Source of the DNA: a virus
Taxonomy: Duplodnaviria > Heunggongvirae > Uroviricota > Caudoviricetes
Direction: 5' to 3' (one strand)
Virus record (IMG/VR): IMGVR_UViG_2636415477_000006
Coordinates: 1 to 18,348 of that record
DNA: 18,348 bases
Part shown: one piece after another, positions 15,826 to 17,025 of the stretch
How the letters are laid out: each line of letters starts with the position of its first letter
Position numbering within the stretch: position 1 is the stretch's first letter
Position numbers and translations under genes: made by a program
Notes under the pieces: model-generated
Databases searched by the model: none
The model's input: the letters and a program-made list of their open reading frames with translations, nothing else
What the model was told of the DNA's origin: nothing

Positions 15826-15849
15826 ACCCGCCGATGCGCGGGTTTTTTT
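15826..15849 (+). terminator. Intrinsic terminator (ACCCGC-cgat-GCGGGT + T7)
   Basis: GC-rich hairpin followed by TTTTTTT. Confidence 0.7.
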
Positions 15850-16029
15850 GTACCCAGAATCCTGTGAGCTATACGGAAAGTACACAGAAAGGAAGGTGCG
15901 ACCGCAATTAATAACAAAATCTTAAAAATATCATATGGCACTATTAGTTTTCTAAATATTGTATATTTTAAGTATTGCAGGATAACCCTGTAACGAAGTT
16001 TGCGTAACAGCATTTTGCTCTACGAGTTT

Positions 16030-16059
16030 GCCAGCCTCCCCTGGTGGCTGGCTTTTTTT
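16030..16059 (+). terminator. Intrinsic terminator (GCCAGCC-loop-GGCTGGC + T7)
   Basis: 7-bp GC-rich stem followed by TTTTTTT. Confidence 0.7.
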
Positions 16060-16111
16060 GTATCCGTTCAACAGGAATGTTACATACCTCACAATTAAGT
16101 CAGTTGAATGT

Positions 16112-16305
16112 TGTCTGCCCGGATGAGAATTTGTTAGAAAAAACTGCATGGTGAATCCCCCTAAGCGGCGGGGCATCTGGCAAAGTGTATGATCCAGCGA
16201 ACATGCAAATTCAGTAGCCAGGCTGAATTTACCGGGAGGCACCTGGCACCATGCGACAGACAGAAATTAGGCTATACTTCAGCCCCTCTCCGGAGGGGCT
16301 TTTCT
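16112..16305 (+). ncRNA. Structured non-coding unit A: candidate promoter (TTGTCT-17-TTAGAA), 8-bp closing stem GCATGGTG/CACCATGC (16146..16153 with 16247..16254), terminator GCCCCTC-tccg-GAGGGGC + U-run (16282..16305)
   Basis: Homologous to unit B; terminal hairpin with T-run; no ORF or SD; predicted transcript begins at the closing stem. Confidence 0.35.
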
Positions 16306-16494
16306 GTGCAGGATGTGTCACAGTTTCCTGAATTCTGAGTACTGTCCTGTTACTCAGGGTGCTATATTTTCTGACGTGATGAAAGTCTGCCGGAAGGCGG
16401 AACGTATCGGAAATGACCCAGTAGAGAAAACGTTGACTCAGATACCGATGCTGAGTTACCGGGAAACCGGCATCACATGACCGCTATCCTTCCA

Positions 16495-16517
16495 GGCTCG
16501 CTCCGGCGGGCCTTTTT
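16495..16517 (+). terminator. Intrinsic terminator-like hairpin (GGCUCG-cuccgg-CGGGCC + U5)
   Basis: 6-bp stem including one G-U pair, followed by TTTTT. Confidence 0.45.
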
Positions 16518-16577
16518 ACTGCAGAAAACAGTTTTCCCGTAAAATGCCACGTTACTCACAATTCAGGCTGGCGATTA

Positions 16578-16790
16578 TTGTCTGGCCAGCGGGAAGTTTG
16601 TTAAAAAAATATGGCATGGTGAATCCCCCTGTGCGGAGGGGCATATCAGCGACAGGTGTTTGGTCACACCCCTTATCCTTTCTGGTGCGGGTTCAGGTGC
16701 TGATACTGAACTCACCGGGAGGCACCCGGCACCATGCATGAACGGTACATAGCGCTACTCTCCAGCCCCTCTCCGGAGGGGCTTTCTTGT
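16578..16790 (+). ncRNA. Structured non-coding unit B: same promoter-like lead (TTGTCT-17-TTAAAA), same closing stem (16614..16621 with 16730..16737) and the identical terminator hairpin (16765..16790)
   Basis: Paralogous to unit A, with identity concentrated in the promoter-like lead, closing stem, CCGGGAGGCACC box and terminator; internal hairpin differs in a stem-preserving way (CCCCC-uaagcggc-GGGG versus CCCCT-gugcgg-AGGGG). Confidence 0.35.
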
Positions 16791-16795
16791 TGGAT

Positions 16796-16824
16796 AAAAA
16801 AAAGCCCGCGCCGGGAAGCGCGGG
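16796..16824 (-). terminator. Minus-strand intrinsic terminator (CCCGCG-loop-CGCGGG with an A8 run on plus = U8 on minus)
   Basis: GC hairpin 16805..16824 adjacent to A-run 16796..16803; forms a back-to-back pair with the plus-strand terminator at 16765..16790. Confidence 0.5.
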
Positions 16825-17025
16825 TGGCAAGGAATAAACAACAAAACGTGAAGTGATCAATTTTCAGCTGGCGAATAATACCTGATAGTAATCACTCTGC
16901 GCAACTGTATGGTCTTTTTCGTATTGCGGGCTGTAGTCATCCTCCTGTTTCTGAACCCTTGTCCATGACTGACGTCAGCCCGCACCTTATCTTGATTGCA
17001 TACACTATCCCTGCCGGGAGGAATA

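Follow-up and report, generated by a model that had tools for sequence, protein, structure and literature searches.

The 1.1-kb tract between a 197-amino-acid open reading frame (ORF) and the first late gene, a nanS-like esterase gene, in the 18,348-nucleotide (nt) stretch of Caudoviricetes DNA analysed here (IMG/VR record IMGVR_UViG_2636415477_000006, positions 1 to 18,348; hereafter the window) is probably the late-operon leader of a Shiga toxin (Stx)-phage-like lambdoid prophage, without stx or tRNA genes and packed with small-RNA genes. This fairly high confidence applies to the explanation as a whole, namely a late-promoter unit, three genes of the STnc100 type and read-through by the antiterminator Q. 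Our own evidence covers what the parts are and what they are homologous to, how conserved the promoters are, and an RNA structure backed by covariation. The elements of the tract belong to described families, and the finding itself is in that sense already known; what stays of interest is a pseudoknotted fold at the 5′ end of the STnc100 RNAs, a diverged third copy in the tract, and copies of the same fold inside operons.

The upstream part of the tract corresponds to the late-promoter unit of Sp5, the Stx2 prophage of strain Sakai, as window positions 15764-16067 align with its pR′-StxS-tR′ interval at 294 of 304 identical bases (~96%). In Sp5, the pR′ start was mapped by differential RNA sequencing (dRNA-seq), tR′ was located 258 nt downstream by Term-seq, and the resulting StxS RNA is bound by Hfq, cut by RNase E between GU and AUU (+173), and activates rpoS (Sy et al., PMC7547250). 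The interval 15767-16059 retains the promoter, RNase E motif and tR′ of a homologous, Q-dependent pR′-tR′ unit: the plus-strand promoter TTTACG-16-TATCAT (15767..15794, recovered by a promoter scan and identical to that of Sp5), the motif GUAUU (15972-15976, +172 to +176, plus strand), and tR′ (16030-16059, plus strand), whose stem is intact and whose loop differs from that of Sp5 by 2 nt. With TATCAT 7 nt before an inferred start at ~15801/15802, the alignment predicts a StxS-like leader RNA of ~258 nt on the plus strand (15801..16059). The cognate regulator of this promoter is the Q gene at 14590..14970 (plus strand, 126 aa, Q933W type; Pfam PF06530, E 3e-53), whose product is 83% identical to the Q of Sp5 (ECs_1203). 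Whereas Q directly abuts pR′ in Sp5, in the window the two are parted by a 0.8-kb insertion that carries the ORF at 15105-15698. The Sp5 order continues with a 440-nt gap after Q, three tRNA genes, stx2AB, an STnc100 copy (208 bits), AsxR on the opposite strand and a nanS homologue; the corresponding window interval between tR′ and the first STnc100 unit (16059-16146) is without the three tRNA genes and stx2AB. The window has the backbone of a Stx phage that carries no toxin cargo.

A terminator scan of positions 15000-17300 returned 12 terminator-like sites, compared with 2.4 ± 1.7 in shuffled sequences. On the plus strand these lie at 15824-15845, 16028-16047 (better drawn as 16030-16052 with a T-run to 16059), 16281-16300, 16494-16513 and 16764-16783, and thus all five stacked hairpin-plus-T-run terminators described in a previous sequence-only reading of this DNA were recovered; a further hairpin at 16805-16824, which that reading had overlooked, was scored as a strong minus-strand terminator. 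Because 15764-16067 is ~96% identical to the Sp5 interval, the first two of the five belong to the pR′-StxS-tR′ unit. The first (15824-15852, plus strand, identical in Sp5), a strong hairpin followed by U7, occupies positions +23 to +51 in the transcript from pR′ and resembles an intrinsic terminator; despite a hairpin of this type, the mapped StxS transcript extends 258 nt to tR′. It may be an early terminator, a pause site, or part of the Q-utilisation site. The proposal that no credible ORF lies between the 197-amino-acid ORF and nanS likewise stands: a Pfam search of ORFs within the tract gave zero matches, and RefSeq annotates no coding sequence (CDS) in the 99.8%-identical stretch of the UPEC-245U chromosome.

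Downstream of tR′, the tract carries predicted STnc100 genes. Two homologous units had been proposed from the letters alone, and both are found as direct repeats with a spacing of 467-483 nt (repeat families D1-D4). The structure-family scan put forward with that proposal identifies both as full-length matches to Rfam RF02076 (STnc100), at 16118-16309 (145.1 bits) and 16585-16794 (138.2 bits), each covering model positions 1-206 and each well above the gathering score of 47. At a relaxed threshold, a third match ends at the fourth terminator (16345-16520, 30 bits, E 4e-4); it scores below the gathering threshold, as does a copy in the early operon described further below (31 bits). Our own covariance model, R1, built from 76 diverse family members, hits the same three places, with 98 bits for unit 3, 85 bits for unit 1 and 27 bits (E 1e-5) for unit 2. 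Other Rfam families gave only weak, chance-level matches in the tract. The count of two units is therefore incomplete, as the stretch between them (16376-16518) holds a third, diverged copy, and by these model scores the tract holds three tandem STnc100-type genes, not two.

Unit 1 (plus strand) is predicted to yield an RNA of ~160 nt (16146..16305; minimum free energy (MFE) z-score -3.35) from a promoter at 16111..16140 with a -35 element TTGTCT and an extended -10 element TG-T-TAGAAA. Its 5′ domain (16146-16254) comprises a closing stem P0 (16146-53/16247-54), a pseudoknot (16176-81/16217-22) and the hairpin P4 (16207-14/16223-30), and is followed by a terminator at 16282-16299. Unit 3 (plus strand) has a predicted RNA of ~177 nt (16614..16790), a promoter at 16578..16607 (TTGTCT, TG-T-TAAAAA), and a 5′ domain at 16614-16737 formed by P0 (16614-21/16730-37), P1 (16626-41), the pseudoknot (16644-51/16698-16705), P4 (16689-96/16706-13) and P5 (16715-29), with its terminator at 16765-16782. 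These maps bear out several details of the sequence-only reading: TTGTCT with TTAGAA or TTAAAA 17 nt downstream is present at 16111-16116 (one position upstream of the 16112 given there) and at 16578-16583, the closing stem GCATGGTG...CACCATGC and the CCGGGAGGCACC box occur in both units, and the terminator hairpin GCCCCTCTCCGGAGGGGC is identical between them.

Unit 2 (plus strand, predicted RNA of ~143 nt, 16376..16518, from the helix map and fold) keeps every helix with a different sequence through compensatory changes. These helices are P0 (GUGAUG/CAUCAC, 16376-81 with 16471-76), P1 (CUGCC-GGAA-GGCGG, 16387-16400), the pseudoknot of the strand with the P4 loop (UAUCGG/CCGAUG, 16405-10 with 16445-50), P4 (ACUCAG/CUGAGU, 16436-41 with 16451-56), P5 (CCGG-GAAA-CCGG, 16459-70) and a terminator at 16495-16512, and GNRA-type tetraloops stand in place of the family's invariant loops. 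An extended -10 element, TG-c-TATATT (16360..16368), can be read ahead of unit 2, 7-8 nt before its closing stem begins.

Across 49 distinct upstream regions of the family, the block TTTGTTAAAA is best conserved, giving a family promoter whose extended -10 element (TG-n-TAAAAA) precedes the start by ~7 nt, with TTGTCT or TTGCCT 17-18 nt upstream. A start at the closing stem is supported because PasD, a relative discussed below, begins at the equivalent position. The 3′ tails and terminators come in several interchangeable types, including a PasD-type tail on a canonical domain in some phage copies (L148, L154), and this layout fits a modular design in which a constant structured 5′ module is joined to a variable tail with a seed and an Hfq site. 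In the window, the units have terminators and single-stranded tails, as putative Hfq-binding small RNAs (sRNAs), with short, interrupted U-tracts in units 1 and 3. Three tandem STnc100 units, at a spacing of ~255-261 nt, are also carried by prophages with a lambda-like Q (L249 1726-2341; L271, L282, L258), with additional copies at other sites, up to five per contig. The TGTTAAAAA promoter block of E. coli is missing from their upstream regions. A tRNA or tRNA-like origin of the units was considered and set aside, as ARAGORN found nothing.

The 5′ fold of the family consists of P0, P1, P4 and P5 and of a further helix of 6-8 bp, in which the strand that follows P1 pairs with the loop of P4. 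This pseudoknot is absent from the consensus structure line of Rfam RF02076, and we found no mention of it in the searchable literature. A search for the unit in other prophages, as the sequence-only reading had suggested, was run with three sequence patterns on IMG/VR prophage contigs and yielded several hundred members of the family. Among them, the closing stem covaries (GCAUGGUG with CACCAUGC, GUGUGGUG with CACCACAC, UGAUGGUG with CACCGUCA) through exchanges of A-U to G-C and of C-G to U-A, and the P4 hairpin covaries heavily. The pseudoknot pairing takes many sequences, among them UGCCAGUC/GACUGGCG, AUCAGCA/UGCUGAU, GCUAGGC/GUCUAGC, UCCAAC/GUUGGG and GUUCCAGAA/UUCUGGAAC. The stem-preserving changes noticed earlier in an internal hairpin (AAAUUCAG/CUGAAUUU in unit 1 vs. 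GGGUUCAG/CUGAACUC in unit 3) are real and extend across the whole STnc100 family, including the closing stem, P4 and other helices. The 5′ domain is near-invariant in UGGUGAAUCCCCC...GGGG and in ACCGGGAGGCACCCGGCACC.

Covariance modelling, also proposed in the sequence-only reading, supports this structure. For the five-helix structure on the raw MAFFT alignment of 76 sequences, 79.1% of cells are paired vs. 73.1% in shuffles, and covariation reaches 0.218 vs. 0.132 in shuffles, with slid controls at or below 0.117. For 114 model-aligned matches, 81.5% of cells are paired (71.8% in shuffles), double-sided changes occur in 29 of 32 pairs, and covariation is 0.282 vs. 0.130; none of 500 shuffles attained this value, and slid controls did not exceed 0.125. 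Double changes are found in all six of the pseudoknot pairs in these 114 matches, whose alignment was fitted to the pseudoknot; we therefore added an alignment-free test, in which 48 distinct types score 15.6 with their own partner compared with 11.1 ± 0.4 when permuted (0/5000). RNAalifold, run on a 35-sequence alignment, drew a UCCC-GGGA pairing instead of the local P1 and P5 helices, a choice that its invariant columns cannot discriminate; the Rfam-like P1 and P5 were kept because diverged copies support them by compensatory changes. A reading by eye of GGA motifs as CsrA sites was dropped, because the A in the loop of P1 can also be U or C. A GCATGGTGAATCCNCC scan of species-representative genomes (596 Gb) gave only chance matches in unrelated phyla among the matches listed, its 15 specified bases being too few.

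The fold also occurs outside late regions. A fourth copy lies on the minus strand in the early-left operon of the window (3274..3401; R1 41.8 bits, E 1.5e-9; Rfam STnc100 31 bits), directly after the terminator of a DicF-like RNA (hairpin-terminator at 3471-3422, minus strand; Rfam DicF 29 bits) and 33 nt before a kil-like ORF of 73 codons (3240-3022, minus strand; annotated as kil in the relative UPEC-245U), and it has no terminator of its own. In E. coli K-12 MG1655, the Qin prophage has the fold exactly between dicF and dicB (R1 38 bits, E 4e-8; positions 1956-2081 of L451, NC_000913 1647500-1651000), and the Qin spacer and the window copy have in common the fold, the DicF-type terminator upstream, and a cell-division-inhibitor gene downstream. 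This operon-internal variant was found in more than 120 viral contigs; in most of them it directly follows a DicF terminator, and the start codon of a gene, dicB or another, comes 25-35 nt later. It differs from the late-region units in having no obvious promoter or terminator of its own, and in a fully substituted P1, with UGCG/CGCA instead of CCCC/GGGG. It is chiefly because these operon-internal copies have no terminator that we suspect the fold to be more than an adornment of an sRNA.

Few bacterial sRNA families are annotated as often as STnc100 (PMC9029176). Strain EDL933 has 11 copies, which are transcribed according to RNA-seq, one of them positive by Northern blot (PMC5331693). The Hfq-bound sRNA EcOnc27/sRNA103 of enterohaemorrhagic E. 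coli (EHEC) overlaps the STnc100 copy that lies downstream of stx2B (PMC12711010); this copy has also been detected by reverse-transcription quantitative PCR (RT-qPCR) in outer membrane vesicles (PMC12370729). Units 1 and 3 share with STnc100/EcOnc27/sRNA103 a late-region site upstream of nanS, the 5′ domain and the terminator, and the tail of unit 1 is similar to that of EcOnc27, the Sp5 copy. The window differs in having three tandem units, one of them sub-threshold, and no stx operon upstream.

A second group of relatives, PasD1 and PasD2 of enteropathogenic E. coli (EPEC) E2348/69, has been related to STnc100 by a 2026 preprint (10.64898/2026.05.13.724894). PasD, seen by Northern blot, depends on Hfq for stability, and its chimeras in the ligation and sequencing of interacting RNAs (RIL-seq) fall mostly in the last ~50 nt (PMC8550237); its 5′ end has been mapped (PMC8550237 Table S6) and is the G of GCAUGGUG. 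PasD2 (L002 3158-3329) lies immediately upstream of a SASA esterase gene and starts at the G of GCAUGGUGAAUCC. The PasD RNAs match the STnc100 models below threshold (41 bits for Rfam, 34 bits for R1), and share with the units described here this 5′ start, the P4 hairpin, the GGGAGGC box, and a site just upstream of SASA esterase or lysis genes. They differ in having no P5 hairpin and in their own tail, seed (UGUGAG) and terminator. The earlier suggestion of paired small RNAs gains support from these comparisons, since the units are full-length RF02076 matches and their promoter and start at the closing stem agree with the mapped PasD 5′ end.

Past the terminator of unit 3, a candidate convergent sRNA of ~72 nt is encoded on the minus strand (16797..16868), delimited by the scanned terminator (16824-16805) and a possible promoter, TTGCGC-18-TATTAT, with its -10 element at 16880-16875. 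It occupies the same convergent position, directly past the STnc100 terminator, as AsxR of Sp5. In contrast to AsxR and AgvB, it resembles (~85%) the EPEC RIL-seq candidate E2348C_1409.E2348C_1408.IGR, and the interval 16797-16868 has no Rfam match, including to AsxR, AgvB and Esr41. Related sequences follow most STnc100 terminators in phage contigs.

For the mechanism outlined here, transcription, Hfq binding, RNase E processing and Q dependence are taken from the papers on homologues. In the lysogen, pR′ and the three unit promoters would fire constitutively, and each transcript would stop at its own terminator. The pR′ transcript would end at tR′ (16030-16059) to give the StxS-like RNA of ~258 nt, which RNase E would cut at the GUAUU motif (15972-15976) into an Hfq-binding sRNA, by analogy with StxS. 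Each STnc100 unit would start at the first base of its closing stem from its own extended -10 sigma-70 promoter, and would be made up of three parts: a 5′ domain of ~100-125 nt with the pseudoknot, a single-stranded tail that varies, and an intrinsic terminator. The tail and terminator would be the Hfq-bound, target-pairing part, as in PasD and EcOnc27. The output would be four plus-strand small RNAs and probably a fifth from the minus strand. From the behaviour of StxS, PasD and EcOnc27, we infer that in the lysogenic state these RNAs would use Hfq to act in trans on mRNAs of host and phage. The likeliest role of the conserved 5′ domain, and our best guess, is that of a module for stabilisation or protein binding. 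As long as the prophage is lysogenic, the terminator stack would prevent expression of nanS and of the lysis and structural genes. Upon induction, Q would load onto RNA polymerase at pR′, and the modified polymerase would read through all five plus-strand terminators into these genes.

Two other accounts of the repeated units fare poorly against the evidence. The sequence-only reading had offered, next to paired small RNAs, duplicated pR′-tR′ (6S-like) units forming a Q-dependent gate; on this account Q would engage RNA polymerase at the units. Each unit is indeed a promoter followed by a terminator, is situated between Q and the late genes and has about the length of lambda 6S RNA, and there is precedent for pR′ transcripts that become sRNAs (PMC7547250). 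However, the genuine pR′-tR′ unit is at 15767-16059, the Sp5 STnc100 copy is located downstream of stx2B and 2 kb from pR′, and in phages with a lambda-like Q one to three STnc100 units come only after a pR′ that has the AACGATGGG pause motif and a terminator to itself. The same units are found after three different Q families, and in the window, as in phages with two other Q families, they come after a separate pR′-tR′ unit rather than as a Q-type-specific first transcription unit after Q. No convincing -10-like hexamer of a sigma-70 pause element could be read from their first 20 transcribed bases. We consider this account very improbable; of the proposed gate, the part that holds is that all five plus-strand terminators stand between pR′ and the late genes, while the repeats themselves are not pR′ units. 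Hardly more credible is that the units encode small proteins, with the GGGAGG box as a Shine-Dalgarno sequence for the AUG in CACCAUGC. GGAGG does lie 11 nt upstream of this AUG in units 1 and 3, ahead of ORFs of ~26 and 40 codons (16734-16856 being listed), and ribosome footprints were reported on some EDL933 copies (PMC5331693). Yet the AUG is not conserved, as most members have CACCAC(A/G)C, covarying with the 5′ arm of the stem, and the putative ORFs differ in frame and length, run through the terminators and have no Pfam match.

The preferred explanation, with STnc100 units as trans-acting Hfq-dependent sRNAs, has observations to contend with. Canonical STnc100 is without a validated target or phenotype, its function being listed as unknown (PMC9029176), and the expression evidence comes from homologues rather than from this prophage. 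The U-tracts UUUUCUG (unit 1) and UUUCUUG (unit 3) make weaker Hfq 3′ sites than those of PasD or the Sp5 copy, the elaborate, near-invariant pseudoknotted 5′ domain exceeds the needs of an ordinary Hfq sRNA, and the occurrence of the same fold within operons without its own terminator hints at a function beyond that of a trans-acting sRNA. A different account takes the 5′ domain as a cis-acting sensor or leader, riboswitch-like or protein-binding, that controls the terminator or the next gene instead of forming part of a trans-acting sRNA. A five-helix pseudoknotted domain with near-invariant loops and strong covariation, the terminator that follows it, and the terminator-less copies at a distance of 25-35 nt ahead of the start codons of genes such as kil and dicB would all suit such a role. 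Against it, the late-region units have their own promoters and follow one another in tandem, remote from any ORF, PasD is placed in trans-acting networks by Hfq and RIL-seq data, and the GNRA-type tetraloops of unit 2 argue against one fixed ligand pocket; tails and terminators differ and are exchangeable between members, and a conserved alternative pairing with the domain was not seen in a search that was not exhaustive. We regard the sensor as unlikely. A broader proposal, which we advance tentatively and credit with somewhat less than an even chance, is that the STnc100 5′ domain is a distinct modular pseudoknotted fold of lambdoid prophages with its own specific function. As such it may form the 5′ end of stand-alone sRNAs, which occur singly or in arrays of up to three and have interchangeable tails, and may also be used inside operons, after the DicF terminator and upstream of kil or dicB, including in E. 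coli K-12.

The window as a whole belongs to a lambdoid prophage of E. coli, and positions 15700-17050 are 99.8% identical to the UPEC-245U chromosome. There the RefSeq gene order is NinB, NinE, RusA, NinH, Q, a hypothetical protein, 1.3 kb without annotation and the SASA esterase (nanS), followed by holin, lysozyme, terminase, portal and an N4-gp56-type capsid protein. The 197-amino-acid ORF inserted between Q and pR′ (15105..15698, plus strand), called a moron in the sequence-only reading, has a weak DnaD_N match, is annotated as hypothetical in UPEC-245U, and carries a CxxC...CxxC motif; the insertion costs Q ~18 C-terminal codons relative to Sp5. The first late gene past the tract encodes the nanS-like SASA esterase (17026..18117, plus strand; Pfam DUF1737 and SASA, in agreement with the RefSeq annotation). 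ARAGORN found no tRNA or tmRNA genes in the window. Rfam matches above the gathering score were also obtained on the plus strand for isrK (12162-12239, 69 bits) and C4 antisense RNA (12265-12349, 66 bits), side by side upstream of an ORF6N-domain gene. Among 5426 complete E. coli genomes, the three-unit array is present in 640, and 2744 have some match to this array.

For annotation, our results mean that a tract left unannotated in RefSeq is not mysterious, being a late-operon leader with known prophage sRNA genes. If the 5′ domain does have a function of its own, the candidates would be protein binding, a nuclease-resistant 5′ cap, and control of the next gene, and the covariation-supported pseudoknot together with the domain-plus-tail architecture of STnc100 provides concrete mutants to test. 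Because K-12 is a standard laboratory strain, its copy between dicF and dicB makes the fold accessible to study, and it connects the late-region sRNAs with the control of prophage cell-division inhibitors.

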